Shown here in pieces: positions 1,449 to 25,748 of a stretch of 27,892 bases of DNA. The position numbers were made by a program, and so were the translations under genes. Location of the stretch: the IMG/VR virus record IMGVR_UViG_3300032456_000001. One strand, 5' to 3'. Numbering within the stretch: the first letter of the stretch is position 1; every line of letters starts with the position of its first letter. The notes beneath the pieces are model-generated. The model searched no databases and had not been told where the DNA came from. It saw only the letters and a program-made list of their open reading frames with translations. The stretch comes from an uncultured virus (IMG/VR IMGVR_UViG_3300032456_000001). Its lineage: Duplodnaviria > Heunggongvirae > Uroviricota > Caudoviricetes.

Positions 1449-2399
1449 ATGTTCAATAAAAAAAATCTTGAGAAATCAGAAATCTCAAGAGACGAAATCG
1501 AGAAAATGTTAAAAATTGTCCACTCCGGCGACGTACATCGAGAACGAGGGGGACTTTTCAAAACAGACGGCACGGTAACAGAAGAACCTAATACGGGTGG
1601 CAGGTTCTGTCGAAGTATGCTCATTTTGGACACCGACTCGTTTGACTGGGATAAAGTTAAAGCACTTTGGATTAGCAACGAAATTGAACCGGAAGAGGGG
1701 TATTTCGATGAATGTTGTAGCCGTTGTGTAACAGCACGAGAAGCTAAAGTGAAAGCCCCTAGACTGGATTTTGTCACTCCAGCTCAAGGAAATTGGGCGG
1801 ATGCCTTTAAGATTCCGCTGGCGGTGTACCAAGCTGAAAGTCCGACAATACTTGGAAGTTTCGACTACTATGACCCAACCGGGGAAACGTTGGGAGTTAA
1901 TTTCTACCCTTGGTCAGAACAGGCAGGAATTGCGCGAAAAGACCCTAAGCTATTAACGGCAACTGCTTTAAAAGCCGTAGAGTTTATCAAAGCAAGGGAG
2001 GCTCAAATAACTGAAGAATGGATGGCTCTAAGACAAGAGTACGCCACTCAAGAAAGGCGTTGCATGGAAGCAGCCGAACAGGCCTTGAAAGAGTTGGAGC
2101 CGTTGAGTGTTGACTACGCAAACGCAGTGGAGAAAATTAAGCGTTACGGTGGTCAATCTCCGCGCCAACCCAACTATCAGGAGTGGCGAAACCTGCATAT
2201 CGAAACGGGTTTCAACTCTCAAAATCAATCGCAGCAAGCCAGCCAAGCAAAACAAGTTGCCCAGATTAGGCAGCAATTGCTGTCTCCATCACCCGACGCT
2301 TTTGAATTTCCTTCTGAGTTGCCGGAGAAGATTGGTATCCCAGTTCAGGCTTATTCCAATTGGAACAAGCAGTGTCACGCTAAAAATATGGCGCGTTAG
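1449..2399 (+). CDS. Hypothetical protein (coiled-coil, Q-rich C-terminus)
   Basis: 316-aa ORF starting 5 nt after the previous stop. Confidence 0.8.
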   Translation: MFNKKNLEKSEISRDEIEKMLKIVHSGDVHRERGGLFKTDGTVTEEPNTGGRFCRSMLILDTDSFDWDKVKALWISNEIEPEEGYFDECCSRCVTAREAKVKAPRLDFVTPAQGNWADAFKIPLAVYQAESPTILGSFDYYDPTGETLGVNFYPWSEQAGIARKDPKLLTATALKAVEFIKAREAQITEEWMALRQEYATQERRCMEAAEQALKELEPLSVDYANAVEKIKRYGGQSPRQPNYQEWRNLHIETGFNSQNQSQQASQAKQVAQIRQQLLSPSPDAFEFPSELPEKIGIPVQAYSNWNKQCHAKNMAR

Positions 2400-2474
2400 T
2401 TACTGAATTCCTTTTATACTCAGTCAAAAGTGGGTCAATTTCAATTATTACAATAGCTTCAAGGGGAGTGAACA

Positions 2475-2732
2475 ATGCCGGGAGATACAAGCATATTTGA
2501 TGTTGCCGTCAAGCTGTGGGGAATTAACTTAGAAAAGCTTTCACCTGAATACAGGTCAGGATTAATGCAAGACTTGCAAGACTCTCTAGCAACGGGTGGC
2601 TGTTTTGAAGATGAAGGTTTTTTGTCTGTACCTTGCGAGAGTGGAGCAATTACTATTAAGCCGCTAACTTGGTTCAGGTCAAGAAGAGAAGCATTGGAAC
2701 TGATAATGATGATTAATCGCCTAGAAGGATAA
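2475..2732 (+). CDS. Hypothetical protein
   Basis: 85-aa ORF with GGGGAG RBS. Confidence 0.7.
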   Translation: MPGDTSIFDVAVKLWGINLEKLSPEYRSGLMQDLQDSLATGGCFEDEGFLSVPCESGAITIKPLTWFRSRREALELIMMINRLEG

Positions 2733-10546: not shown

Positions 10547-10894
10547 CTAGAGAACTTTGAGCCCTTCTCTAGATGTTCGGACACAGGAGTTCCGAAACTC
10601 CTGCAAATTGACAGCGGGTAACGGAGAAAACCCGTCCTCTCCTTTTGTCATCGCAACCACTGACGGAAAATACCCCGTCAACCCGTGAATGGCCACCACT
10701 ACTAGTACTGACAGAGGCGCTAAGCCTGGTGGCACAATCACTACATCTTCGCTTCCGTCTCCTACAATGGAGGCTAAGTAGGCAATGAGTTTCTGGCAAA
10801 GCTCCGCGTCCGCTAGATCAACGTGAAGCTGATGATTAACAAACCCGTCGGCGGTTAAAACTGGATTGGGATGAGAAAAGTTTAGTTTAATCAT
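10547..10894 (-). CDS. csx15: Csx15-like protein (CRISPR-associated family; candidate cyclic-oligoadenylate ring nuclease or sponge), stand-alone
   Basis: Motifs LNFSHP (N-terminus), PPGLAPLSVLVVVAIHGLTGYFP and NLQEFR match the Csx15 pattern NFSHP...PPGxA...HGxxGxFP...NLQxxR as I recall it; not searched. Confidence 0.75.
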   Translation of the reverse strand: MIKLNFSHPNPVLTADGFVNHQLHVDLADAELCQKLIAYLASIVGDGSEDVVIVPPGLAPLSVLVVVAIHGLTGYFPSVVAMTKGEDGFSPLPAVNLQEFRNSCVRTSREGLKVL

Positions 10895-10959: not shown

Positions 10960-11391
10960 AGAAAAACTCGGTAAGTGGGAAACTCAGTATCTTCAGACCT
11001 GAGAGGGAAACGGCTCGGCGGTTTGAACCGCCTTGAATCTTTCCATTACCGCATTGGAGTTGCTTGACTTGGTGTACTTTTGTAATGTACTTTCAGCAGG
11101 ACAGTTACTACCTCAAATCTCACAACCCTGTACGCATAATGTTTGCTCTTTTGGAGCCTCCCTTGCGGGGTAATGTTTGCTTCGCCAATGTTTTCTGAGC
11201 TTTTTAGACCTGCAACACTGTTTCAGTGACTTTAAAACTGTTTAATTGCAGGCGACAGGGCAAGGAACTAGCTTCGCATTCCAGGGTGTCGTGACTCAAA
11301 AAACGTAGTCAGTTAAGACTTAGGCTGGTCAGAATAGCTTGCTTCAACTTTCGTCTTACAAGCTCAGTGGCTTTAGCCCTGAGTTTCTGAC
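10960..11391 (-). mobile_element. Non-autonomous IscB-type IS200/IS605 element (iscB deleted), 432 bp
   Basis: Matching 21-nt subterminal hairpins CTCAGT-N10-CTGAG at 10983-11003 and 11363-11383. On the minus strand it begins GTCA and is followed by ATGA (10956-10959), a known type of IscB TAM. The ATG CGT at 11137 after the RNA reaches a stop after 5 codons. Confidence 0.85.
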
Positions 11392-11411
11392 AGGAGTAAC
11401 CTACTATGCTG
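11145..11411 (-). ncRNA. IscB omega RNA (HEARO family) scaffold with predicted 5' guide 11392-11411
   Basis: GTCAGAA/TTCTGAC closing stem; GACCAGCCTAAG, ACTACGTT, GACACCCTGGAATGCG..GCTAGTTCC, TTAAACAG and AACATTGGCGAAGCAAACATTACCCCGCAAGGG motifs; intact helices CGACA/TGTCG, CCTGCAA/TTGCAGG and GTTTTTTGAGT/GCTCAGAAAAC. Confidence 0.9.
11392..11410 (-). ncRNA. 5' half of the mini tRNA-like element (acceptor 5' strand plus short hairpin)
   Basis: AGCATAG pairs with TTACGCT at 6 of 7 positions, including one G-U. TAGG-TTACT-CCT|A closes its fourth pair only across the IS junction. Confidence 0.55.
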
Positions 11412-11417
11412 AAGCAC

Positions 11418-11624
11418 TTAGAGCCCGTGGGCAAACTCTAAATATTGCTTTTCGACACCGCAAATATTCCCTTGACTTAACTCGTAGCTCAAGTCAACAT
11501 CTACTTCTGCCCACAATAAGGCTGTGTCTAGTTGTTGTACTATTGGGCGAGGATTGGTCAATACCTCCTGCCCTACTTCCGTTAACGGGATGAAAGTATT
11601 TTCGACAATTTTAAAGTGATACAT
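11418..11624 (-). CDS. Hypothetical protein (68 aa) downstream of hammerhead 1
   Basis: ATG at 11624 with GGAG/GGA upstream. The longer upstream extension of the ORF runs through the ribozyme. Confidence 0.65.
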   Translation of the reverse strand: MYHFKIVENTFIPLTEVGQEVLTNPRPIVQQLDTALLWAEVDVDLSYELSQGNICGVEKQYLEFAHGL

Positions 11625-11644
11625 AATATTCCAACTCCGTAATT

Positions 11645-11706
11645 TTACTAGCCTCGTCAGTGGCAAAGTAGTAAGCTTTACCAGACACCTGAGAAGGTGT
11701 TTCGGC
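11645..11706 (-). ncRNA. Type II hammerhead ribozyme with loop I / 3' tail pseudoknot (copy 1)
   Basis: GCC-GAA-ACACCU(UCUC)AGGUGU-C^UGGUAAAG(CUUACUA)CUUUGCCA-CUGACGA-GGC-UAGUAA. Complete catalytic core with a GUC cleavage site at 11684/11683; loop UUACUA is complementary to tail UAGUAA. Confidence 0.95.
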
Positions 11707-11714
11707 TTTTTGAC

Positions 11715-12332
11715 TTAACCTCGCAAATTCCAAGGATTAATTACTACTGCTGTAATCTCCCGTTTTTCAACTTCTTTTTTGTTTGTTAAATAATTGCGAA
11801 CTCGCCATTGTCCACCAAATCGATATCTTGTTTTCTCGTTGTAACAGCAGGTAGGACTATGGCAACTCTTTGAATAATTAGACTCGGGGCATGAAGCGTA
11901 ATCTTTAGCCTCTGACACCATACTTTCAAGGCATGGTGTCAGTTCAAATTCTGCTGCCTTATAGAAGCTAGAAACAGAATCATACTTAATCACTGACAAA
12001 TCTTTGCAGATTTTCAATAATGCGGTTTGTCTTGAAGTTATTTCTGTTTTTCCATCATCTCCTATTAGTTGCCAGTCCACTTGTACGAATGCTCTTCTTG
12101 GGACAGTACAATCAACTTGTTTGGCTATTTTTGAAAAAATCAAATCTAGCTGAATCGGGGTAAACATTTCGTTACCCACCCATTCTAAATGCTTTTCTAT
12201 GTTGGGATAATTTACATTGTAATTTCCATCGACAAATCCAATAGAGACACACCCAAAAGTCATTCGCAAGAATCCACGTTCTGTGTTTTTAATGGCGATT
12301 TTAGATGGAACCGAAAGAATAGGTTGAGCCAT
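11715..12332 (-). CDS. Hypothetical protein (205 aa), first gene of cassette 2
   Basis: AGGAGA RBS 6 nt upstream, directly behind a near-consensus promoter. Confidence 0.85.
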   Translation of the reverse strand: MAQPILSVPSKIAIKNTERGFLRMTFGCVSIGFVDGNYNVNYPNIEKHLEWVGNEMFTPIQLDLIFSKIAKQVDCTVPRRAFVQVDWQLIGDDGKTEITSRQTALLKICKDLSVIKYDSVSSFYKAAEFELTPCLESMVSEAKDYASCPESNYSKSCHSPTCCYNEKTRYRFGGQWRVRNYLTNKKEVEKREITAVVINPWNLRG

Positions 12333-12338
12333 TGATTT

Positions 12339-12500
12339 TCTCCTTTGTTAGTTGTTTTTCGCTTAATAGCAAGTGGTTTTTTCTATCTGTTATTACTATA
12401 GGCTACTCGCTAGGACTTGTCAAGCGTTTTGGGAAAGTATTTTTCAAACGGTATCGAAAGCGTTGCTATGTATGGTGCTTAGCAGTTGTGTTCGCAAGTA
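12339..12500 (-). promoter_or_regulatory. Repeated promoter/leader/RBS module, copy A
   Basis: TTGACA (12418-12423), 17-nt spacer, TATAGT (12395-12400); RBS AGGAGA at 12339-12344. 150/162 identical to 13290-13451 by manual count. Confidence 0.9.
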
Positions 12501-12786
12501 GTGGACAGGACAACTCGTAGTAGAGCGCCGTGTCTACGCCATTTTCTTCCGGGTCATAGTCACTATCCTGCCACTCCAACCCGGCAATACTAGGGTGAAC
12601 GAGCCACCAATAAATCACAGAAGTAATTCCATAGAAGTAGACAGTTTCTTTCTCAAATTTCGTCCACCCTTGTGCGACGAGCTTTTCAGTAAACGCTATT
12701 TCCTCGGAGCTTTTTTCCGAATTTAGTAGCTCTAACGCTTGCTTGGCTAAGGTTAATTCCTGCTCTTTGCTAAATACAAAATCCAT
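12466..12786 (-). CDS. Hypothetical acidic protein (106 aa) downstream of hammerhead 2
   Basis: ATG at 12786 (MDFVFSKEQ...). The upstream ORF extension is ribozyme sequence. The last 11 codons lie inside promoter repeat A. Confidence 0.75.
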   Translation of the reverse strand: MDFVFSKEQELTLAKQALELLNSEKSSEEIAFTEKLVAQGWTKFEKETVYFYGITSVIYWWLVHPSIAGLEWQDSDYDPEENGVDTALYYELSCPLLANTTAKHHT

Positions 12787-12802
12787 TATTTTCTTTGTGA
12801 TT

Positions 12803-12864
12803 TTACTAGCCTCGTCAGTGGCAAAGTAGTAAGCCTTACCAGACACCTGAGAAGGTGTTTCGGC
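12803..12864 (-). ncRNA. Type II hammerhead ribozyme with pseudoknot (copy 2)
   Basis: Identical to copy 1 except for one stem I change (A-U to G-U, pairing kept). GUC cleavage site at 12842/12841. Confidence 0.95.
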
Positions 12865-12884
12865 GATTATTAGATAGGAAAAGA

Positions 12885-13283
12885 CTAACTAGCTATAAAG
12901 TCAGCTTTTATGCTTTCAGGTACATAAGCTTTACAACGTTGGACAAACTTATCCGCTGATGTTAGGCCTCTTGAGTTTATGTCCGTACTTACCTCGCCGA
13001 TTGTAACTTCCTTTGTGACGTTACACTTCTTAATAGTGTAAGCCCAACTTCCATAAGGATAGTCCCCAAACCACATTAAAAGGTAATCACAATAAGTAGC
13101 TTTATCTGCTGCGCCCTCAAATATCCAGTAATCCACTTGACGTAGCACTGCTTTATCCTCCCCATTACTGAAAACTTTAGATACTCCCAAACCACCATCA
13201 GTCCAGTAACTAATCTCTCCTTTTTCATCAACTGTTAGAGCAACTTTTTCATTAAAATCGAATTCAACTTGTGGTGTCATCAT
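12885..13283 (-). CDS. Hypothetical protein (132 aa), first gene of cassette 1
   Basis: AGGAGA RBS upstream, directly behind a near-consensus promoter. Confidence 0.85.
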   Translation of the reverse strand: MMTPQVEFDFNEKVALTVDEKGEISYWTDGGLGVSKVFSNGEDKAVLRQVDYWIFEGAADKATYCDYLLMWFGDYPYGSWAYTIKKCNVTKEVTIGEVSTDINSRGLTSADKFVQRCKAYVPESIKADFIAS

Positions 13284-13289
13284 AATTAG

Positions 13290-13451
13290 TCTCCTTTGTT
13301 AGTTGTTTTTTGCTTAATAGCAAGTGGTTTTTTCTATCTGTTATCACTATAGGCTACCCACTAAGACTTGTCAAGCGTTTTGGGAAAGTATTCTTCAAAC
13401 GGTATCAAAAGTGTTGCTATGTATGGTACTTAGCGGTTTTGTTCACAAGTA
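13290..13451 (-). promoter_or_regulatory. Repeated promoter/leader/RBS module, copy B
   Basis: TTGACA (13369-13374), 17-nt spacer, TATAGT (13346-13351); RBS at 13290-13295. Confidence 0.9.
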
Positions 13452-13474
13452 TTGGTAGCGTCGGTGTAGGGATG

Positions 13475-13505
13475 TTGACGCGCTGGGTCAATCTCGTGAT
13501 ATAAT
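13475..13505 (+). promoter_or_regulatory. Putative promoter of the rep leader
   Basis: Extended -10 TGaTATAAT (13497-13505); TTGACG at 13475-13480 with a long 19-nt spacer. Confidence 0.65.
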
Positions 13506-13541
13506 CAAACAAGAAGCCACCCGTTATAAGCGGGTGGCTTC
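13505..13541 (-). terminator. Intrinsic terminator of the antisense RNA
   Basis: 11-bp perfect stem GAAGCCACCCG/CGGGTGGCTTC (13513-13541), followed on the minus strand by TTGTTTG. Confidence 0.7.
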
Positions 13542-13597
13542 AATCAAAAAATGTTGGATACAGCGGAACAAAACCTTGACAAGGTGGCGATTGTTCT
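13505..13597 (-). ncRNA. Predicted ~90-nt countertranscript (antisense) RNA to the rep leader
   Basis: Bounded by a near-consensus minus-strand promoter and a terminator, and lies wholly within the rep 5' UTR. Ends are approximate. Confidence 0.7.
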
Positions 13598-13603
13598 TTG
13601 TTA

Positions 13604-13632
13604 ATTGTAGCACCCCTGACGAACGTTGTCAA
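13604..13632 (-). promoter_or_regulatory. Promoter for the antisense RNA
   Basis: TTGACA (13627-13632), 17-nt spacer, TACAAT (13604-13609) with extended TG. Confidence 0.8.
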
Positions 13633-13703: not shown

Positions 13704-14192
13704 ATGGACACATCAAGACTAGGATACTTTGACGAAGATTTAGCTACCATCATCGGCGTAATTGAAGCCACCATGTTTAACAAGCTTCAGTGGTGTGTTG
13801 AGAGTCCTTCAATGGCTGGAACAGTCGTAGATGGGCAAAAGTGGATTCGCAACCCTATCAAGTGCACAGACCCTAAAAAGAAAGAGCGAGTACAAGAACA
13901 CGGCAAGTTTATTGACTGGCGCGGCAATTTTCCATTCTTGAGTTTTTATCAAATCAAGTCTGGATTTGCCAAACTTGAAGAACTCGGTTTAGTCATCAGT
14001 CGGAAGCTTCGAGCCGGAAAATGGGATGCCTGCAAGTATTACACCATCGACACAGAAAAGCTAGCTGAACTGCTGGAACCCGCATCACTACCCATTTGTC
14101 AAAATCCGTCAAATCGATATGTCGAATCTCAGCAAATCGATTTGATGACTGACTGCAAATCATATCAAGATACATCTTCAAAAAAAGTTATT
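13704..14192 (+). pseudogene. Phage replication initiator (N-terminal winged HTH), 5' part, interrupted by the IS605 element
   Basis: LAxxIGxxEA...W...FPFLS..QIK....LEELGLV...KYYTID pattern of phage replisome-organizer proteins. The ORF runs into the IS left end and stops at 14237. Confidence 0.8.
14094..14162. repeat. Three imperfect 23-bp iteron-like repeats (putative replication origin)
   Basis: ATTTGTCAAAATCCGTCAAATCG / ATATGTCGAATCTCAGCAAATCG / ATTTGATGACTGACTGCAAATCA. Each has an ATTTG...CAAAT dyad; the period is not a multiple of 3; an AT-rich tract follows. Confidence 0.7.
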
Positions 14193-14205
14193 CAACTAAG
14201 GCAGC

Positions 14206-14289
14206 AGGAGTCCCGCACTCTAATGGTACTCCGTTGAGTGACGGGAGGAGTCCCGCACTCTAATGGTACTCCGTTGAGTGACGGGAGGA
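14206..14289 (+). repeat. Exact 40-bp tandem duplication of the IS left-end hairpin
   Basis: AGGAGTCCCGCACTCTAATGGTACTCCGTTGAGTGACGGG occurs twice, followed by AGGA. Confidence 0.95.
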
Positions 14290-14367: not shown

Positions 14368-15573
14368 ATGAAACAAGTTCTGACAGTATCTTGCAAGCTC
14401 CAAGTGACACCTGAGCAGTCTATCAAAATTGATGCAACCTTTCAGGCGTTCGCGAGTGCTTGTGAATATGTGAATCAAACTGTGTCGCCAACCCTGACAA
14501 ACGAATTGGCGATGCAATCTTTGATATATCACGATGTCAGAGATATGTTTGGACTTTCGGCACAGTTGGCAATCCATGCTATTAGACGGGTTTCCGGCAA
14601 CAGAAAAACAGCCAAAAAAGATGGGAAACCGGTCAATAAATTTGCTCCTACTAGCGTCACTTACGATACCCGTATCTTTTCTTTCAGGGAGAAAGATTGG
14701 ACAGTAAGTTTGACTACTACTGGTGGCAGGGAGCGGTTTGTACTGGCTATTGGGAACTACCAACTTGGATTGCTGAAAGGTCAAAACCCCAAGACTGCTA
14801 CTTTGTGCAAACGCAAAGATGGTAGTTACTATCTCAATATTCAGCTTGAATCTCAACCAGCCGAGCCTCCACCAAGCAATCACGTTTTGGGCTGTGATTT
14901 GGGTAGGACTGATATTGCAGTTACTTCTGATGGAGATACATTTAGCGGTAAACAAATTACCCAAGTTAGAAATCATTATGCTAAGTTGAGAGAGAATCTC
15001 CAACGAAAAGCCACGAAAGGCACACGCAGCTCTCGGCGTAGATGTCGAGGATTGTTGAAACGGTTGTCGGGCAAAGAAAAACGCTTTCAGACCTTAGTAA
15101 ATCACACTATCAGTCACCGTATTGTAACGAAGGCTCACAACAAAAATCAAGTTATCGCTTTAGAAGATTTGACTGGGATTAGGGAGCGTACAAATCAGCA
15201 GCCACGCTCGAAGAAAGAGCGCAGACTTAGTAATAGCTGGGCATTTTTTCAGTTGCGTCAATTTCTGATTTACAAAGCTATAAAGCATAGCGTCAAGATT
15301 TTGTTTGTCGAGCCTAGGTACACCAGTCAAATGTGCCACAAATGCCATCACATTCATCCTGTAAAGGGTGAGTCTTATAGGAATGGCAAAAAGTTCGCTT
15401 GTGGTCATTGCGGATGGAAAGGTGATGCAGACTTAAATGGTAGTAAGAACATTGCTACTATTGGGGCTTCCGTAAATAAGCCTGAAGGTTCGAGATTATT
15501 TTGCCATTTGCAAGATCATTTCAGGGCTATTGAAAGCCCACACTGTACCTGTACTCAGGTCAGTGCTGGGTAA
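14368..15573 (+). CDS. tnpB: RNA-guided endonuclease TnpB
   Basis: RuvC-I GCDLG, RuvC-II ALEDL, zinc finger CHKC...CGHC and RuvC-III DADLNGSKNI; all catalytic residues present. TGaTATAAT ends 6 nt before the ATG, suggesting a leaderless mRNA. Confidence 0.97.
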   Translation: MKQVLTVSCKLQVTPEQSIKIDATFQAFASACEYVNQTVSPTLTNELAMQSLIYHDVRDMFGLSAQLAIHAIRRVSGNRKTAKKDGKPVNKFAPTSVTYDTRIFSFREKDWTVSLTTTGGRERFVLAIGNYQLGLLKGQNPKTATLCKRKDGSYYLNIQLESQPAEPPPSNHVLGCDLGRTDIAVTSDGDTFSGKQITQVRNHYAKLRENLQRKATKGTRSSRRRCRGLLKRLSGKEKRFQTLVNHTISHRIVTKAHNKNQVIALEDLTGIRERTNQQPRSKKERRLSNSWAFFQLRQFLIYKAIKHSVKILFVEPRYTSQMCHKCHHIHPVKGESYRNGKKFACGHCGWKGDADLNGSKNIATIGASVNKPEGSRLFCHLQDHFRAIESPHCTCTQVSAG

Positions 15574-19953: not shown

Positions 19954-19955
19954 CC

Positions 19956-22331
19956 ATGCCAGATATTAACGACATTGACGGCCGCCCCGCAATTGAAACC
20001 GATGAACCAATGTCGATTCAAGAAGCGAACCTGTGGGCTTTAGGACAAAGAGACAAAGCAAATGCTCAAAAAGCTGCGATTGAGCGGTTACGGTGTGATG
20101 CGGCTAAACGTCGTGAGAGCAAACCAGCAAATCCACTGGAAACACTGAAGCCTGACCCTAGCTACAGAGTTCGTGAGTTCAACGCTGAAGCTGATGCTTT
20201 TAATGTTGATGGTAGCGACGGCAAGAAATTGCTTGGCAAAAGTTTGAGTAACGGCAACGTTCGCAATGGTCAGAAGGTGCGTTCGTTCATCGCACCAAAC
20301 GGTCAAGTTGTTATTGATGTTAAGCCAAAAGGAAGGGATATAGTTATTCCGAAACCAGAGCCAAAACCGCCCGTTGAAAAAGTTTTAGACAATATTAAAA
20401 TATTGTTTTACGTTGATTCGGAGATTTCTCCCTTTGTTGGATACGATGAATTAACCGTTGAGCGTCTATGGAAAGAACTCTGGATAGGTGGCACATGGCC
20501 TGTTAAAAAAATTTACACGGTCCCAGATGGCTATAGAATGGCTGATGCTTTCATTGTCAACACAGGAGAAAAAGAAGAAGATTATGTTGTAATGGGAAGA
20601 CTTTTCCCTGTCAAGCAAATTCACAAGTGGTATAGCCAACTCAATATATCAGATTACGCAAACACACTAGGAACTCCCGCCGCTATTCTATTCACAATAG
20701 AAAAAGGAATTACCAGTCAACAAGAGTTTTGGGCGGATTCTTGTCCTCCTTATTTTTGGCGATACTGTGGAGGCGGGTTTTTCTATTCCGCTGGTAGTGA
20801 AATAGGAGTAAATACTATAGATGCTTTTTCTGGAAACGTAAGAAGCTATTGGCCCAGAAGCTATAATTGGTACAATGGTTGGCAAAATAACAATTTTGGA
20901 TATGCAAATAATTATATTTCAAAAGGAATAGCATCTAGTTTTACAAGCTTTGCTTTCCATAAAGTTGGGATGTATAGTGGTCAGTCTTATTATGGTAATC
21001 CAGATACCAATTATGTGGTAAAACCTAGCAATACTCATATTCCTTTAATACCAGATTACGATAAATATTCTTCATTGGCTTGGCACACTGTTGATGGTAT
21101 TTATCAACCTCCAGAAATGTTGTTCGGGGTTGATGTTTCTTCATGTTGGTATTTTAAAATTAAAAGTATTAACTCTCAAAACGTTAACACTTTCTATTCT
21201 TTCCAGACCCCTGGTAATATTGAGTTGTCTTCTACACCTGGGGAAATGGGAGTTTCTGGAGAGTTTTGTGTAACTCCAAGTAAAAATTTTAGTATAAATT
21301 ATGAAGCTCCAATTTCTCATTACAACACATCTACTGAACTGTATACAAGCACTACTGGCTTTTTGTATGAACCTTTGCTAGTAAATGACACTGGAGAGAA
21401 AACATTAACTATCAAGCAAATATCTTTAGCTGTATCGCCTTCTCAACAAATTACTTCGGCTAATTCTTTAGTATATTTGTCTGACGCAGGAGAAAGTGCT
21501 ACTTTTAAAAAGATATCAGGCATTCCCGAACTTAACAACTTTAGCGGATTAGGACTTAAGTTTTCGACATATTTTAACGCTAATTATACTGTAGTACCGC
21601 CCTACACTTTCTCAAGTCTATCTTATACTTATTCTGGTTATCTTGACCTGTTGTGGAGTAATACGGTTGTTTGTGATACAGAAATTTACTGGTATCCAGG
21701 CATAGATGTCACTTTTTCTTTATCAGCCAATCAATCAGAAACTAACAAAGAAATATTGTATTTAAAAGATTTTTTGTTACAATTTGCTCAATTTACTGGG
21801 CTAGCGGTTATGCCGTCTGATGACATTCGCAGATCCTCGTCATTTATTGGATATTATTTTTCTATTGACACTATTTGTCAGTATCTAAAACCTTTGTCTT
21901 CCTATATTGATAACAGTATTTATATTCCTTACTGCTTCCTAGATACTAATAAAAAATTTTACGGAACGCAGTCTTTAAATTATGCAGAGCCAGAAAAAAC
22001 AAGAGTTCTTCCTCAGTCCACTAAAGCTATAGTCAAAATAGTAGAATTAAAATTAAATGAATCAACAGAAGAAATAAAGGTTGCACCCAATGTAAAAGAA
22101 TTACCTATATATATGGTAACACCCGAAAACACAGAAAGTCCGACAATAGCGCTAGCCTCCGCTAATTATTGGAGCAAAAGCAAAACAAAGGGAATACCGA
22201 TGCCCGTGTTCACGCCAACACCATCAGAAGTTACAGCGCCACCCACACCCACACCCACACCTACTCCCACTCCCACTCCTACTCCTACTCCCACTCCTAC
22301 TCCCACTCCTACTCCCGGTGGCGGCTACTAA
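19956..22331 (+). CDS. Putative tail / receptor-binding protein with C-terminal Pro-Thr repeat
   Basis: 791 aa in the tail module, with an aromatic/Asn/Ser-rich distal region; ends (PT)12PGGGY. Confidence 0.6.
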   Translation: MPDINDIDGRPAIETDEPMSIQEANLWALGQRDKANAQKAAIERLRCDAAKRRESKPANPLETLKPDPSYRVREFNAEADAFNVDGSDGKKLLGKSLSNGNVRNGQKVRSFIAPNGQVVIDVKPKGRDIVIPKPEPKPPVEKVLDNIKILFYVDSEISPFVGYDELTVERLWKELWIGGTWPVKKIYTVPDGYRMADAFIVNTGEKEEDYVVMGRLFPVKQIHKWYSQLNISDYANTLGTPAAILFTIEKGITSQQEFWADSCPPYFWRYCGGGFFYSAGSEIGVNTIDAFSGNVRSYWPRSYNWYNGWQNNNFGYANNYISKGIASSFTSFAFHKVGMYSGQSYYGNPDTNYVVKPSNTHIPLIPDYDKYSSLAWHTVDGIYQPPEMLFGVDVSSCWYFKIKSINSQNVNTFYSFQTPGNIELSSTPGEMGVSGEFCVTPSKNFSINYEAPISHYNTSTELYTSTTGFLYEPLLVNDTGEKTLTIKQISLAVSPSQQITSANSLVYLSDAGESATFKKISGIPELNNFSGLGLKFSTYFNANYTVVPPYTFSSLSYTYSGYLDLLWSNTVVCDTEIYWYPGIDVTFSLSANQSETNKEILYLKDFLLQFAQFTGLAVMPSDDIRRSSSFIGYYFSIDTICQYLKPLSSYIDNSIYIPYCFLDTNKKFYGTQSLNYAEPEKTRVLPQSTKAIVKIVELKLNESTEEIKVAPNVKELPIYMVTPENTESPTIALASANYWSKSKTKGIPMPVFTPTPSEVTAPPTPTPTPTPTPTPTPTPTPTPTPTPGGGY
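22242..22316 (+). repeat. Hexanucleotide coding repeat (CCY ACW)12 CCC encoding (PT)12P
   Basis: Read directly from the sequence. Confidence 0.95.
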
Positions 22332-22335
22332 TTTA

Positions 22336-23112
22336 CTAAATTGGAACTATAGCAAAAGTCGGATTAAACTTAACCTTGATTCTGTGAGTTTCCTTCATCC
22401 CTCTCCTGTCTAGAGCTTCCTGAATTGCTGATTGAATTAAAACAAAAAAATCAATTGCTAGTTTGTCGCCCGTAACAGAGTTTTCGTGTTTCCTGTATTG
22501 ATACAGATACTCATTTATTTTCCCTATTTCTGTAATTTCCGACAGTCGCAAGCAAATGTCATAGTCCTCAATTGTGTCAAATTCCGTGCGAAAACCACCA
22601 ATTTCTAGGTACGCAGATTTTCGCATCATTCGGAAATGAAACGCCATGAAAACCGATAAGATTCGCTCTTTAGAATACGGAATAGAACATCGCCAGCCGG
22701 GCCGCATTTTTTGCCCATTCGCATCAATATCTACATAATTTGTATACACCAACCCCCAGTCGGGATTATTGTCAAGCGCTGCGACTGTTAACTCGATTGC
22801 CTGTTGTTCCAGTAAATCATCAGAGTCAAGTTGCCCGACATACTCTCCCCGTGCCGCACTAAACCCCGCAATCAGCGCATTTGCAGCCCCTCTGTTAGCG
22901 TCATCTGCTGGTCTGTTGGGGTTGGTCAATACCCGAATTCTAGGGTCATGCTCCGCGAAGTTCTGGGCAATCTCTAAGCTCCCATCTGTGGAACCGTCAT
23001 CAGAAATTATCAGTTCCCAGTTTTTGTCTGTTTGCCAGATGACGCTTTCGATGGCGGTTTCAAGGTAACGCTTGCGGTTATAAACTGGGATAACAATAGA
23101 AACAAAAGTCAT
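22336..23112 (-). CDS. Glycosyltransferase family 2
   Basis: VSIVIPVYN, DDGSTD, LDSDD (DxD) and EDYDICLRL motifs. Confidence 0.95.
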   Translation of the reverse strand: MTFVSIVIPVYNRKRYLETAIESVIWQTDKNWELIISDDGSTDGSLEIAQNFAEHDPRIRVLTNPNRPADDANRGAANALIAGFSAARGEYVGQLDSDDLLEQQAIELTVAALDNNPDWGLVYTNYVDIDANGQKMRPGWRCSIPYSKERILSVFMAFHFRMMRKSAYLEIGGFRTEFDTIEDYDICLRLSEITEIGKINEYLYQYRKHENSVTGDKLAIDFFVLIQSAIQEALDRRGMKETHRIKVKFNPTFAIVPI

Positions 23113-23156
23113 ATAAATATACAGACAAATTATTCATCAAATATAGCAGATTCATG

Positions 23157-24047
23157 TTAATTTTGCGTTACACATTTATAGCCAAGCTTTTCTAAGTTGC
23201 GCCAATTTGTTAATTCAATATTTTCTACCTCTATGGCGCTTAATTCATTACGCCAAGCATCAATCCTTGCTGATTCAATTGGCTTAAAAGTCATTGGATT
23301 TAAACCAGCCTGACTTGGTAGCACTAAGTTCAACTCCGCATTCTTCTGATAGAACAACAGCATTGACTCGTCAAAATCCAAGCCTAGCCAGTTACACAAT
23401 TTTAATAATTCTATTGACGGATTTGCGACCAACTCTTCGTACCGAATCAGAAAGAATTGGTCGCAGTCGCGGTATTTCTCAACTAGCTTCGTTACGGCAT
23501 CCCACTGACGCGCCATTCCTTCTAAGTCTCTGGGGCCAGTCCAAACCTTTTCCGCTCTTAATTCTTTTGATAAAATTGCTTGCAATGAACTGTAGCAGGC
23601 TCGAAAATCTCGAAGAATCAAAACAACCCTAGCACTTGAAAAGTGTTTCCAAATTATTTCTAATTGGTGGATATGGCAAGGGTTTTTATCTCCCCAGACC
23701 AAAGAGGTTGGAGCAAACTGCTGAAGATAGCCTTGGTATACCGAGTTTATGGCTAGCGCATAGCTTAAAAAATTATATCTTTTTAAATCCCTAGATAAAG
23801 CTTGTCGATTGACACCCCACTGGCAAAATTTAGGAAATCTTGATTTGTCGTAAAGACTGTTTAAAAAATCTTCAATCTTGTTTGACAGGTTTCCGATGTT
23901 GCCGTACTCTTTTTCTAGAGAAATGAAAAAAAGACTTTCAGGAGGAATGCAAATACCCGGATGAGTCGTTAGCAGTAGTCGTAAAAGAGTCGTGCCAGAA
24001 CGTGGCGCTCCTGTTACAAAAATAGGGTTAACTTGGTGATTAAGCAT
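23157..24047 (-). CDS. Sulfotransferase (PAPS-dependent)
   Basis: 5'-PSB loop GAPRSGTTLL, WGDKNP, LRDFRACYSS and RYEELV motifs; ATG at 24047. Confidence 0.93.
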   Translation of the reverse strand: MLNHQVNPIFVTGAPRSGTTLLRLLLTTHPGICIPPESLFFISLEKEYGNIGNLSNKIEDFLNSLYDKSRFPKFCQWGVNRQALSRDLKRYNFLSYALAINSVYQGYLQQFAPTSLVWGDKNPCHIHQLEIIWKHFSSARVVLILRDFRACYSSLQAILSKELRAEKVWTGPRDLEGMARQWDAVTKLVEKYRDCDQFFLIRYEELVANPSIELLKLCNWLGLDFDESMLLFYQKNAELNLVLPSQAGLNPMTFKPIESARIDAWRNELSAIEVENIELTNWRNLEKLGYKCVTQN

Positions 24048-24082
24048 AAATACAAAGAATAACAACTGAAACTTTAAAAAAT

Positions 24083-24937
24083 TTATTTATAACTTGGCAT
24101 TTCCTTGATTTCTTGAATTGCACCCATCAAAAGTGGTTGAGTTACAGTTTTAAGTTGATGTTGCAAGATAGCAGTTTTAGCAGCATTCTGAGCAACTTTT
24201 ACAACCTGTGCAGCAGAGAATCCGTCCATTTCTGGCAGCAAAATATCCCAGTCTAACTCTTCCGTTTGAGTAGTTTTTGGAAAAGAAACTTGCAACGTAT
24301 GAACCAGTAGCAATTGAACTTCACGCTTGCTCGGTTTTGGTAGCTCAATCACGTCATCAAATCGTCGCCAAACCGCCGAATCTAAAGATTTGGTCAAGTT
24401 GGTTGCCATCACAATCAACCCATTGTCGGGATTGTATTCGTCTAAAACTTGCAAGAAAGTATTAACTATTCGCTTAACCTCGCCAACGTCTTTATTGTCT
24501 TCTCTTGTTCTGAGGATAGAATCACACTCATCGAAAAACAAAACGCATGGAGTTTCGCTAATCTCGTCAAAAACCTTTCTTAGATTCTTGGCTGTATCTC
24601 CTAAAAACGATGATAAAATTGAGTCAAATTGCACTTTAACCAGTGTTAAGCCAGTATTCCATGCTAGACGCTCGGCTCCAAGGGTTTTCCCACAACCAGG
24701 GACTCCGTACAACAGAATCTTTTGCCTGTAGTGCAGGTTGTGAACAGCCAATCTAGCTCGTGCTGCATACTCGCACTCAATGCGACGGAATCGGTCTTCA
24801 ACAGCATCGGGTAGCACCATGTCGTGCCGTAGTTTTTCTCGCTCTACAATTGTTGCCATTGATAACTTGTCTCGATTCAATGGTAATGGAATCAACGTCC
24901 TTTCAAGGATTGATTGTTTAGTGGCGGTTCTAGGCAT
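24083..24937 (-). CDS. AAA+ ATPase, IetA-like (family usually paired with an S8 protease)
   Basis: Walker A GVPGCGKT, Walker B FFDECD, sensor ATN and LDSAVWRRFD. LRHDMVLP...EYAAR.RL...AERLAWNTGL resembles the S8-associated ATPases as I recall them. Confidence 0.85.
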   Translation of the reverse strand: MPRTATKQSILERTLIPLPLNRDKLSMATIVEREKLRHDMVLPDAVEDRFRRIECEYAARARLAVHNLHYRQKILLYGVPGCGKTLGAERLAWNTGLTLVKVQFDSILSSFLGDTAKNLRKVFDEISETPCVLFFDECDSILRTREDNKDVGEVKRIVNTFLQVLDEYNPDNGLIVMATNLTKSLDSAVWRRFDDVIELPKPSKREVQLLLVHTLQVSFPKTTQTEELDWDILLPEMDGFSAAQVVKVAQNAAKTAILQHQLKTVTQPLLMGAIQEIKEMPSYK

Positions 24938-24971
24938 GATATTATTGTTTTAGTGTTATTAAAATTGTATC

Positions 24972-25748
24972 ATGCAACGATTCTTTTTAGTCGGATGTCC
25001 TCGCAGTGGCACGACAATTTTTCAAAGCTTATTAGCCGCGCATCCAGAAATCAATACATTTCCAGAAACTAAGATTTTTCAATACACCTTATGGGATGGA
25101 TTTCGGCACAAACTGCCTGAGCGGTTGCAGCGTTTCTTTTATTTTGAAATAATGCGTCCAGAGTTGCTAGAACCTTTTAGAGAATGTCAGACAACTGAAG
25201 AGAAGATAACATGGTTTATCGGCGTTTTGGATGGATTGACAATTGAGAACGAGAAAAATATCTGGGTAGAAAAGACACCCGAACATATATTTTTTATTCC
25301 TGAAATTCAGCGCCATGTTCCTGACGCAAAATTCATTCATATCACTAGAAACGGGTTAGATACAATTGCATCTTTGTGGGAAGCTACCCACATGACCGAA
25401 AATCAACTATGGGGCGGACAGTGGACGTTAAATCATTGTATACAGAGATGGAAAGATTCTATCAAAATCACCGAGAAGTACGCTGAGAACAAGAATCATT
25501 TGATGGTTGAATACGAACGACTAATCTCCCACAAAGTCGAGGTATTGACTGAGTGCTGTAATTTTGTCGGCATTGACTACAGCCCTGTCATGCTCACTGG
25601 TTACAAGTTCCAAGCTTTAAACCTGGGGGGAGGAATGCCGTGGCATCAGGGTATTGACAGAGATATTGAAGCACCCGCAATTCCTAAATACAAGAAAGTC
25701 TTTCAGCAGCAAGAGATTGAATATATCCTTGACAAAATTCAAGAGTAA
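24972..25748 (+). CDS. Sulfotransferase (PAPS-dependent)
   Basis: GCPRSGTTIF, WVEKTP, TRNGLDTIASL and EYERL motifs. Confidence 0.93.
   Translation: MQRFFLVGCPRSGTTIFQSLLAAHPEINTFPETKIFQYTLWDGFRHKLPERLQRFFYFEIMRPELLEPFRECQTTEEKITWFIGVLDGLTIENEKNIWVEKTPEHIFFIPEIQRHVPDAKFIHITRNGLDTIASLWEATHMTENQLWGGQWTLNHCIQRWKDSIKITEKYAENKNHLMVEYERLISHKVEVLTECCNFVGIDYSPVMLTGYKFQALNLGGGMPWHQGIDRDIEAPAIPKYKKVFQQQEIEYILDKIQE

Follow-up and report, generated by a model that had tools for sequence, protein, structure and literature searches.

Genomic setting

The window, i.e. the whole 27,892-nt stretch of viral DNA analyzed, carries on its minus strand two copies of a 62-nt element, each located in the spacer between two small ORFs of the same orientation. 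The features of the locus are reported in Table 1. A 166-nt repeat, D1, is found twice, with 92% identity, and contains a sigma-70-like promoter (11/12 matches in the promoter scan); additional D1 copies are scattered through three related phage contigs, indicated as G002, G003 and G004. D1a is the likely source of a transcript carrying ORF C, copy 1 and ORF D, and a scan of the minus strand for terminator-like sites between promoter and ribozyme found none. The phage itself is probably a cyanophage, with a filamentous cyanobacterium as host.

Table 1. Features of the two-ribozyme locus. Positions refer to the window; all features are on the minus strand.
Feature	Position	Strand	Remarks
Hammerhead copy 1	11645..11706	minus	type II; read from sequence
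Copy 1 stem II	GCC 11706-11704 / GGC 11653-11651	minus	3 bp
Copy 1 GAAA	11703-11700	minus	
Copy 1 stem III	11700-11695 / 11690-11685	minus	6 bp, loop UCUC
Copy 1 GUC cleavage triplet	11686-11684	minus	predicted cut 11684/11683
Copy 1 stem I	11683-11676 / 11668-11661	minus	8 bp including U.G
Copy 1 loop I	11675-11669	minus	
Copy 1 CUGACGA	11660-11654	minus	
Copy 1 pseudoknot	loop UUACUA 11674-11669 / tail UAGUAA 11650-11645	minus	complementary
Hammerhead copy 2	12803..12864	minus	anatomy of copy 1 shifted by +1158
ORF D	11418..11624	minus	68 aa; true start ATG 11624; GGAG 11637-11634; downstream of copy 1
ORF C	11715..12332	minus	205 aa; upstream of copy 1
D1a promoter/5'-UTR repeat	12339..12504	minus	TTGACA-17-TATAGT 12423..12395; AAGGAG before ORF C start
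ORF B	12466..12786	minus	106 aa; true start ATG 12786; downstream of copy 2
ORF A	12885..13283	minus	132 aa; upstream of copy 2
D1b promoter/5'-UTR repeat	13290..13455	minus	TTGACA-17-TATAGT 13374..13346; upstream of ORF A, copy 2 and ORF B

The upstream ORFs terminate 8 nt (copy 1) and 20 nt (copy 2) short of stem II, while the next ATG (11624 and 12786, respectively) is found 20 nt and 16 nt after the tail; intergenic placement and distances are those given in an earlier note on this DNA. The same note had objected that the automatic ORF list extends two frames into the ribozymes. This is indeed the case for 11418..11666, opened by a TTG, and 12466..12846, opened by a GTG, and the starts of homologous proteins support the shorter versions: in G003, homologues of ORF B that have no ribozyme upstream share the MDFVF... 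start, and conservation among ORF D homologues is confined to the part from M(Y/R)HFKI on. For ORFs A-D, no match was found in Pfam, PHROGs, NCBIfam or PADLOC, nor was a usable Atlas match found for ORF C and ORF B. ORF A and ORF C, like ORF B and ORF D, were considered as possible paralogues, and rejected as such on pairwise comparison.

Anatomy of the two elements

A repeat finder locates both elements within a direct repeat of 68 nt (11639-11706 and 12797-12864), featuring 97% identity and two differences. One of them (11641/12799) falls just 3' of the tail, outside the ribozyme. The other, an A at 11677 and a G at 12835, is the sole difference inside the 62 nt and changes an A-U pair of stem I into G.U; pairing is preserved, as the earlier note had observed.

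The core of a hammerhead consists of CUGANGA, GAAA and an NUH cleavage triplet, which in this case is GUC. All three are found in both copies, in the permuted order of type II, at coordinates which the note had given correctly to the base. Stem I (8 bp) and stem III (6 bp) are both closed by a loop, while stem II (3 bp) is open-ended; the cut is predicted, in copy 2, between 12842 and 12841. The class also features a pseudoknot of at least 4 bp between loop I and the nucleotides immediately 3' of stem II; in both copies it comprises 6 contiguous pairs, and the perfect UUACUA/UAGUAA pseudoknot described in the note is read letter by letter.

When the window is searched for the permuted pattern CGAAA..GTC..CTGANGA, matches are found at these two sites only, against 0.10 expected, and two or more matches occur in 0 of 100 shuffles, an estimate to be read with the caveat that the two sites, being copies of a single repeat, are not independent. 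The classical-order pattern, CTGANGA..GAAA..GTC, has one match elsewhere in the window, which is at chance level.

Covariation and family membership

A family of viral hammerheads was gathered by a pattern which fixes the sequence of stem III; stem III pairs therefore carry no information, and this subtype is favoured by the model. The alignment retains 80 sequences, as 12 of the 92 parsed ones, with stem I unparsed, are omitted. Paired cells amount to 89.1% in the alignment, compared to 66.2% in shuffles, none of which (0/500) reaches the observed value, and to 36-43% in slid controls. Two-sided changes are seen in 8 of 8 pairs of stem I, 2 of 3 of stem II and 6 of 6 of the pseudoknot, and all core columns are invariant; the outcome is unchanged when the window's clade is removed. 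The most frequent geometry in the family combines a 3-bp stem II, an 8-bp stem I and a pseudoknot of 5-6 bp, and the window copies share it. The outermost pseudoknot pair (columns 41/62) is formed in 33 of the 80 members: five base pairs are well supported, and a sixth is possible. Loop and tail of the same sequence reach 5 bp in 55 of 82 cases, against 30% of cross pairs, a control diluted by the identical pseudoknot letters that many members share; controls by shuffling the tail of each sequence are weak.

Scores were obtained from a covariance model, R2, based on 76 other viral hammerheads, with the window's clade excluded. Copy 1 scores 60.4 bits and copy 2 53.3 bits (E = 7.9e-15 and 7.2e-13), and the next-best match in the 27.9-kb window 10.5 bits. 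Model R1 gives 66.0 and 59.9 bits, respectively. Both copies align full length to R1, R2 and the Rfam model RF02276 (Hammerhead_II).

The Rfam type II models had been suggested in the earlier note as a check, and RF02276 bears out the identification in part: the alignment covers 66 of 66 model positions, but the scores, 25.2 and 22.9 bits, are below the gathering score of 37, which is an operational threshold and not a biological criterion. The shortfall stems from the A/U-rich letters of stem I and tail and from two one-base insertions, core and pairing being without defect. The match to RF02276 emerged only in scans of 101 nt. A scan of 11400-13100 at E<=10 reported no hammerhead, and a scan of the whole window at gathering thresholds reported a HEARO RNA alone. 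In the four related records, G001-G004, RF02276 has no match at E<=1 (0/4). Over eight hammerhead loci, neither of the two from this clade passes the RF02276 threshold, while the other six do.

Core, topology, covariation at the family level and model scores agree, and support the assignment of both elements to the pseudoknotted type II hammerheads, as the note had proposed. A different kind of element, acting on DNA or on transcription termination, such as a REP-like repeat or an intrinsic terminator, is hardly credible: a terminator-like hairpin followed by a T-run can be seen on the plus strand at 11683-11702, where it is the complement of stem III, but copy 2 has no T-run, no plus-strand gene ends there, and the full hammerhead core, along with four covarying helices, would be left unexplained.

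Plain folding gives a less distinct picture. The minimum free energy of 91-nt stretches is no better than that of shuffled sequences (z = -0.09 and -1.28), and both hairpins are present in the minimum free energy structure of copy 1 only, where the centroid fold shows the hairpins of stem I and stem III as well. Stem I is A/U-rich and includes wobble pairs.

Conservation in related phages

One near-identical copy of the element is found in each of G002, G003 and G004. Over these three and the two window copies, 4 of the 62 positions vary, none of them located in the core, in stem II or in the pseudoknot strands. Three of the four substitutions are structure-neutral, one falling in a loop and two preserving a pair; the G002 copy features an A.C mismatch in stem I. 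Two pair-preserving changes are too few to prove selection on structure within the clade. Flanking sequences become unrelated right at the ribozyme borders.

G001, the nearest record, a fragment of 10,980 bases, has no match. Two matches to a clade-specific pattern were found in metagenome contigs, corresponding to G003 and G004, with none further. In the collection of phage isolates, the only match concerned HEARO, in a Microcoleus phage. HEARO adjoins the hammerhead in G003; a link between the two RNAs was considered and dropped, since the adjacency is not kept in G002 and G004.

In each of the five instances, the ORFs on either side are co-oriented and a D1 promoter is located upstream. The flanking genes vary: ORF A, ORF C or a 139-aa ORF is found upstream, and ORF B, ORF D or a 114-aa ORF downstream. 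A 213-aa homologue of ORF C precedes the hammerhead in G002, while homologues of ORF D follow it in G003 and G004. A similar setting prevails in the family: of 89 members, 64 have, no more than 20 nt upstream, the stop codon of a frame of 40 codons or more (12% at random positions), and 64 have, no more than 60 nt downstream, a first ATG which opens an ORF (16.5% at random positions).

Such conservation bears on whether the elements are inactive relics, or structured spacers, copied within a mobile gene cassette and still present owing to recent shared ancestry rather than to selection for cleavage. Several observations fit this explanation: the 97% identity of the window copies, which points to a recent duplication; the small size of the clade (the window and three records), whose pattern has no match in 185,579 species genomes; the scores under the Rfam threshold; and the stem I mismatch in one relative. 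The explanation is nevertheless improbable, as the core and both pseudoknot strands are invariant in the five instances while the flanks show 69-88% identity or are unrelated, most of the clade substitutions do not affect the structure, and the geometry is that of a family with members which, according to Perreault et al. 2011, are active (PMC3088659).

Proposed role in transcript processing

From their sequence, both elements are very probably functional, pseudoknot-stabilized, self-cleaving type II ribozymes, which would cut a polycistronic mRNA between genes. The most likely function is the self-cleavage of polycistronic early mRNA, by which the downstream gene would gain a 5' end of its own. 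Each ribozyme would be part of the transcript of two small genes, initiated at the strong sigma-70-like promoter that the phage carries in repeated copies; the polymerase is presumably that of the host, acting early in infection. During transcription, stems I and III would fold, and the 3' tail would pair with loop I, holding stems I and II side by side; the RNA would then cut itself 3' of the C in GUC. The upstream RNA, with ORF A or ORF C, would have the stem III hairpin and a 2',3'-cyclic phosphate at its 3' end; the downstream RNA, with ORF B or ORF D, would start at a 5'-hydroxyl, and its leader would comprise the stem I hairpin and the pseudoknot, leaving 16-20 nt to the start codon. The fates of the two cistrons would so be uncoupled, in stability and possibly in translation, and the 5' end of the downstream gene defined regardless of which gene lies upstream.

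The nearness of the start codons may be given a different weight. The earlier note had put forward the hypothesis that cleavage might tune translation; control of ORF B and ORF D translation could even be the main role, folding or cleavage setting ribosome access, with mRNA separation as a secondary effect. Only 16 and 20 nt separate the tail from the ATG, and in copy 1 GGAG is found 7 nt past the tail; the distance from the end of CUGANGA to the start is short in the whole family (median 28.5 nt; 25 and 29 nt in the window). Effects on translation are suggested in a review (PMC6765202), and for haloviruses the 2011 report mentions a variant hammerhead whose distance to a start codon is 13 nt (PMC3088659). 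On balance, this main role appears rather unlikely. The mean unpaired probability of the region from -18 to +5, computed from nested-fold partition functions, with pseudoknots outside the model, is equal in cleaved and uncleaved RNA (0.41-0.47 for copy 1, 0.50-0.62 for copy 2). Copy 2, moreover, has no clear Shine-Dalgarno sequence, and proximity to the start is equally expected of a ribozyme filling a short intergenic spacer.

The presence of two ribozymes in the same orientation, with no terminator-like site between them on the minus strand, would also permit the excision of a 1158-nt RNA, including ORF B, D1a and ORF C, and its ligation into a circle. The products would bear 5'-OH and 2',3'-cyclic phosphate ends, which are the ends used by RNA ligases. 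Such an outcome is very improbable: G002, G003 and G004 contain a single match each, and D1a is an internal promoter between the copies, which places these in two transcription units. For clustered prophage hammerheads, the 2011 report states that circular or spliced products, when sought, were not obtained (PMC3088659).

The processing role may extend further. It is possible, although tentative, that small phage gene cassettes carry the hammerhead along as their 3' terminus, where it acts as a natural insulator. The ribozyme, travelling with a gene inserted between a promoter and an existing gene, would cut the RNA of that gene off the displaced downstream gene, which would regain a constant, protected 5' end with its ribosome site. 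This would explain why conservation stops exactly where the ribozyme does, and why flanking genes are shuffled among relatives. It would also explain DNA contigs from public runs, in which the D1 leader is joined to the start of ORF B, without ORF A and copy 2; the evidence for these contigs is weak, as the sides are short.

Comparison with known systems

Pseudoknotted type II hammerheads are described in prophages by Perreault et al. 2011, where fast cleavage is reported to require the pseudoknot (PMC3088659). The window copies resemble this class (RF02276) in the permuted topology with open stem II, the identical catalytic core, the very short stem II, the pseudoknot of 4-6 bp between loop I and the nucleotides after stem II, and the location between phage or prophage genes, with variable flanking genes. 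They differ from the type II consensus in that stem I and pseudoknot are A/U-rich, instead of G/C-rich, stem II is longer by one pair, and the linker has U where A is usual. Because of these letters, the extra pair and the U linker, RF02276 scores are limited to 23-25 bits, and the whole A/U-rich clade, falling under the Rfam threshold, is missed by standard annotation.

The closest arrangement is that of clustered prophage hammerheads, such as those of the Agrobacterium tumefaciens ardA locus, Clostridium scindens and Azorhizobium caulinodans, for which the 2011 paper showed cleavage of polycistronic RNA both in vitro and in E. coli (PMC3088659). There, too, co-oriented ribozymes are found between short genes of a polycistronic phage transcript, and the proposed role is processing into single-gene mRNAs. 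Here, in contrast, there are two copies, in two modules each headed by a promoter, the phage is a probable cyanophage, and no known family accounts for the flanking genes; the prophage loci are of demonstrated activity, that of the window copies being predicted from sequence. In Desulfovibrio vulgaris, three type II hammerheads, of the same class and also adjoining genes of phage origin, cleave in vivo (PMC8782182); these were detected through RNA ends in cells, by cyPhyRNA-seq, and not, like those of the window, by sequence.

This ribozyme class, with its pseudoknot and its location between phage genes, was already on record in 2011, and the general picture is unchanged. The two copies add examples from a tailed phage of a probable filamentous-cyanobacterium host. 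Composed of two promoter-gene-ribozyme-gene modules, the locus is a natural test bed for the role of bacterial and phage hammerheads, with relatives that carry other gene combinations and possible natural variants lacking one module.

The last comparison is with RiboJ, an insulator of synthetic biology, engineered from the hammerhead of a plant satellite RNA. Placed before a ribosome-binding site, RiboJ cuts off variable upstream RNA and leaves a constant 5' end on the downstream gene. The element described here is natural, and of type II; the principle is similar, and would give an insulating effect of the same kind.

Two hammerhead ribozymes on the minus strand

The minus strand carries two genuine, very probably active type II hammerhead ribozymes, which belong to the pseudoknotted class already known from phages. 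In RNA order, each copy starts with the 5' strand of stem II (GCC, 3 bases), followed by GAAA, stem III (a 6-bp hairpin with loop UCUC) and the cleavage triplet GUC; then come stem I, an 8-bp hairpin closing a 7-nt loop, CUGACGA, the 3' strand of stem II (GGC) and the tail UAGUAA, perfectly complementary to UUACUA of loop I. This is the layout of a circularly permuted type II hammerhead. The description of both copies in the earlier note matches the minus strand base for base: this includes the single difference between the ribozymes (A at 11677, G at 12835), which changes a stem I A-U pair into G.U, and the distances to the preceding stop codons and following ATGs, reported in the table. The duplicated unit delimited by the repeat finder is only 68 nt long (11639-11706 and 12797-12864), with two differences. 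The permuted core pattern is present in the window at these two sites only, against an expected 0.10, and no shuffle out of 100 reached two matches.

Coordinates of the ribozymes and neighboring features; the first ten rows follow the order of transcription of the minus-strand block
Feature	Position	Strand	Description
D1b	13290-13455	minus	166-nt promoter/5'-UTR repeat; TTGACA-17-TATAGT and AAGGAG ribosome site
ORF A		minus	
Hammerhead copy 2	12864..12803	minus	stop codon 20 nt before stem II; predicted cut 12842/12841; ATG at 12786, 16 nt past tail
ORF B		minus	
D1a	12339-12504	minus	92% identical to D1b
ORF C		minus	
Hammerhead copy 1	11706..11645	minus	stop codon 8 nt before stem II; predicted cut 11684/11683; ATG at 11624, 20 nt past tail
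ORF D		minus	
HEARO RNA	11170-11391	minus	full length; RF02033, 160.9 bits; 27 nt past ORF D
Csx15-like ORF	10547-10894	minus	115 aa; NCBIfam NF040560, 45.2 bits (cut-off 35); also PADLOC Csx15
Promoter-like site	13632..13604	minus	TTGACA-17-TACAAT with TG
Terminator-like hairpin	13541..13513	minus	strong; 11 pairs, then T-run; about 60 nt past promoter-like site
Replication-initiator-like ORF	13704-14237		adjoins TnpB-like gene
TnpB-like gene	14368-15573	plus	Cas12f1-like TNB domain, OrfB_IS605; PHROG transposase, E = 1e-46
Glycosyltransferase/sulfotransferase cluster	22336-25748		glycosyltransferase family 2 gene, two sulfotransferase genes, AAA ATPase

Assignment to the type II family

The standard Rfam scan of the window reported the HEARO RNA alone and no hammerhead, and none was among the results of a permissive scan of 1.7 kb. 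When 101-nt stretches are given to RF02276 (Hammerhead_II), the check proposed in the earlier note, both copies align over all 66 model positions, but their scores (25.2 bits, E = 0.0013, for copy 1; 22.9 bits, E = 0.0055, for copy 2) are under the gathering score of 37. A family set was collected by scanning IMG/VR for the core with the window's stem III sequence: the resulting 118 stretches and the two window copies correspond to 92 distinct parsable sequences. For 6 of 8 family-set loci, Rfam gives matches of 39-61 bits, above threshold, while the two loci below it are the window's own close relatives. The collected set is therefore the known family, where the window clade (the window and three related IMG/VR phage records, G002, G003 and G004) forms a low-scoring branch. 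An independent covariance model, trained on 76 sequences, window and near relatives excluded, assigns 60.4 bits (E = 7.9e-15) to copy 1 and 53.3 bits (E = 7.2e-13) to copy 2; the next-best match in the window scores 10.5 bits.

Covariation was evaluated on 80 of the 92 sequences, those whose stem I pairs from its ends over 5 bp or more; the G002 copy, with a stem I mismatch, is among the 12 dropped. Paired cells are 89.1%; shuffles give 66.2%, with 0 of 500 as high as the alignment, and sliding the partners lowers the figure to 36–43%. Substitutions affecting both partners are found for 8 of 8 pairs in stem I, 2 of 3 in stem II and 6 of 6 in the pseudoknot; these counts, for which stem III, fixed by the search pattern, carries no information, are unchanged after removal of the window clade. 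The family-mode geometry is that of the window: 3 bp in stem II, 8 bp in stem I, 5–6 bp in the pseudoknot. Since the sixth pseudoknot pair is formed in only 33 of the 80 members, only five pairs can be taken as firm, with the sixth a possibility.

The clade-specific pattern is absent from 185,579 species genomes; in the metagenome collection it is found in two contigs only, both already seen. The general pattern occurs in 44 stretches from genomes of many phyla, 15 of which, including one from a Microcoleus genome, score at least 45 bits with the model. Unrelated viral contigs from the family scan, L010 and L033, each contain a pair of type II hammerheads separated by a few hundred bases; the L010 coordinates are 1497-1560 and 1882-1945 (plus) and 2386-2550 (minus), and this contig also features a FuFi-1 RNA (144 bits).

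Localization between genes

The position relative to reading frames was surveyed for 89 distinct family members with enough flanking sequence, the two window copies included. In 64 of them, stem II is preceded within 20 nt by a stop that ends a frame of 40 codons or more, and in 48 within 5 nt; positions drawn at random from these loci give 12% and 3.4%, respectively. In 64, the first ATG opening an ORF lies within 60 nt past CUGANGA, against 16.5% of random positions, with a median distance of 28.5 nt (25 and 29 nt for the window copies). Nearby upstream stops and downstream ATGs indicate that members of this family typically take up the spacer separating two co-oriented genes.

The window belongs to a tailed phage: it encodes a 2097-aa tape measure protein, along with tail-protein matches, and its sole phage-isolate match is a Microcoleus phage. 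Runs sharing words with the region carry freshwater, mat, biofilm, sand and glacier metagenome labels; only one contains most of the region, and no run recorded as RNA contains it. The small minus-strand genes form a block interrupting the plus-strand structural genes. Between either D1 promoter and its ribozyme no terminator-like site is present on the minus strand. ORFs A-D had no match in family-database searches and show no paralogy among them. The D1 promoter is near-consensus, and its leader, with AAGGAG, is conserved; shorter D1 copies recur across G002-G004, which suggests that small gene modules are headed by a phage-wide family of promoters.

Other features surround the block. HEARO is the guide-RNA scaffold of IscB/IsrB nucleases; no ORF of IscB/IsrB size follows the window copy, which looks like a mobile, solo copy inside the phage. 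G003 has HEARO at the equivalent position, G002 has it at another site (19955-20178), and in G004 this spot lacks it. The TnpB-like gene is a second element of the same insert related to RNA-guided nucleases. Csx15 is a CRISPR-associated accessory protein; the window ORF matching it is conserved as a 116-aa ORF in G003 and G004, and such a phage-borne copy could be a counter-defence gene. From its promoter-like and terminator-like sites, 13505-13632 (minus) could give an ORF-less transcript of about 90 nt, possibly a small RNA. The 22336-25748 cluster, within the structural region, may be linked to surface or host polysaccharide modification.

Relatives and possible exchange of gene cassettes

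The region is common to three IMG/VR records, two of them estimated complete (83.9 and 91.7 kb), and the model finds exactly one match each in G002, G003 and G004. The order is D1, ORF C, ribozyme, 114-aa ORF in G002; D1, 139-aa ORF, ribozyme, ORF D, Csx15-like ORF in G004; D1, 139-aa ORF, two ORF B-like genes, ribozyme, ORF D, HEARO, Csx15-like ORF in G003. The tandem paralogues of G003 (at least two, 1600-2467 minus in locus L127) together with a third DNA match, weaker and further along, suggest that ORF B belongs to a rapidly duplicating small gene family.

In a five-way alignment, the conserved block runs from the first base of stem II to six bases past the tail, within four unrelated upstream and three unrelated downstream contexts. 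Only 4 positions vary within the 62-nt ribozyme: one in loop III, two stem I changes preserving pairing (U.G to C-G; A-U to G.U) and, in G002, a mismatch replacing G-C by A.C. No variation occurs in the core, stem II or either pseudoknot strand.

Compared with G002, the window contains an extra module, D1-ORF A-ribozyme-ORF B, between two D1 copies. In public run X1, contigs cover the whole region at an even depth of about 24–29 and are interrupted within both ribozyme repeats, the expected behavior of a short repeat. A few joints connect the D1 leader directly with the ORF B start, leaving out ORF A and copy 2 (about 498–510 nt): 12794 to 13305 in X1, 12791 to 13290 and 12795 to 13294 in a second run, X3. 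Natural variants devoid of this cassette may exist, but the joints are only a hint, because their short sides measure just 27–41 letters. The ribozyme may be the portable 3' end of shuffled gene cassettes and act as a natural insulator.

Proposed function and relation to known hammerheads

Self-cleavage, D1-driven transcription and effects on expression are all inferred, in the following scheme. The ribozyme would be transcribed within a two-gene message from a D1 promoter, fold, with the pseudoknot aligning stems I and II, and cut itself. The upstream message would end in the stem III hairpin; the downstream one would open with a 5'-hydroxyl, followed by the stem I hairpin and pseudoknot and, a short way on, the start codon. 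That cleavage tunes translation, as the earlier note proposed, is plausible, but the start-site accessibility calculation does not support it: the mean unpaired probability at positions -18..+5 is the same with and without upstream RNA (0.41–0.47 for copy 1, 0.50–0.62 for copy 2), pseudoknots being outside the calculation. Nor is the idea new, since, according to a 2019 review (PMC6765202), differing product stabilities or translation efficiencies have been suggested, without the matter being settled.

The literature searches covered open-access papers and preprints; among the 12 papers listed in one of them, none joins hammerhead ribozymes with cyanophages. Dataset S1 of Perreault et al. 2011 (PMC3088659) may already include related sequences. 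The two copies add to a known ribozyme class, and their significance is modest. According to the same paper, an mRNA-splitting role is proposed for such clusters, the flanking genes are not constant, and fast cleavage needs the pseudoknot; clustered prophage hammerheads cut polycistronic RNAs of about 2 kb in vitro and, for one locus, also in E. coli. Type II hammerheads of Desulfovibrio vulgaris are reported to be active in vivo (PMC8782182).
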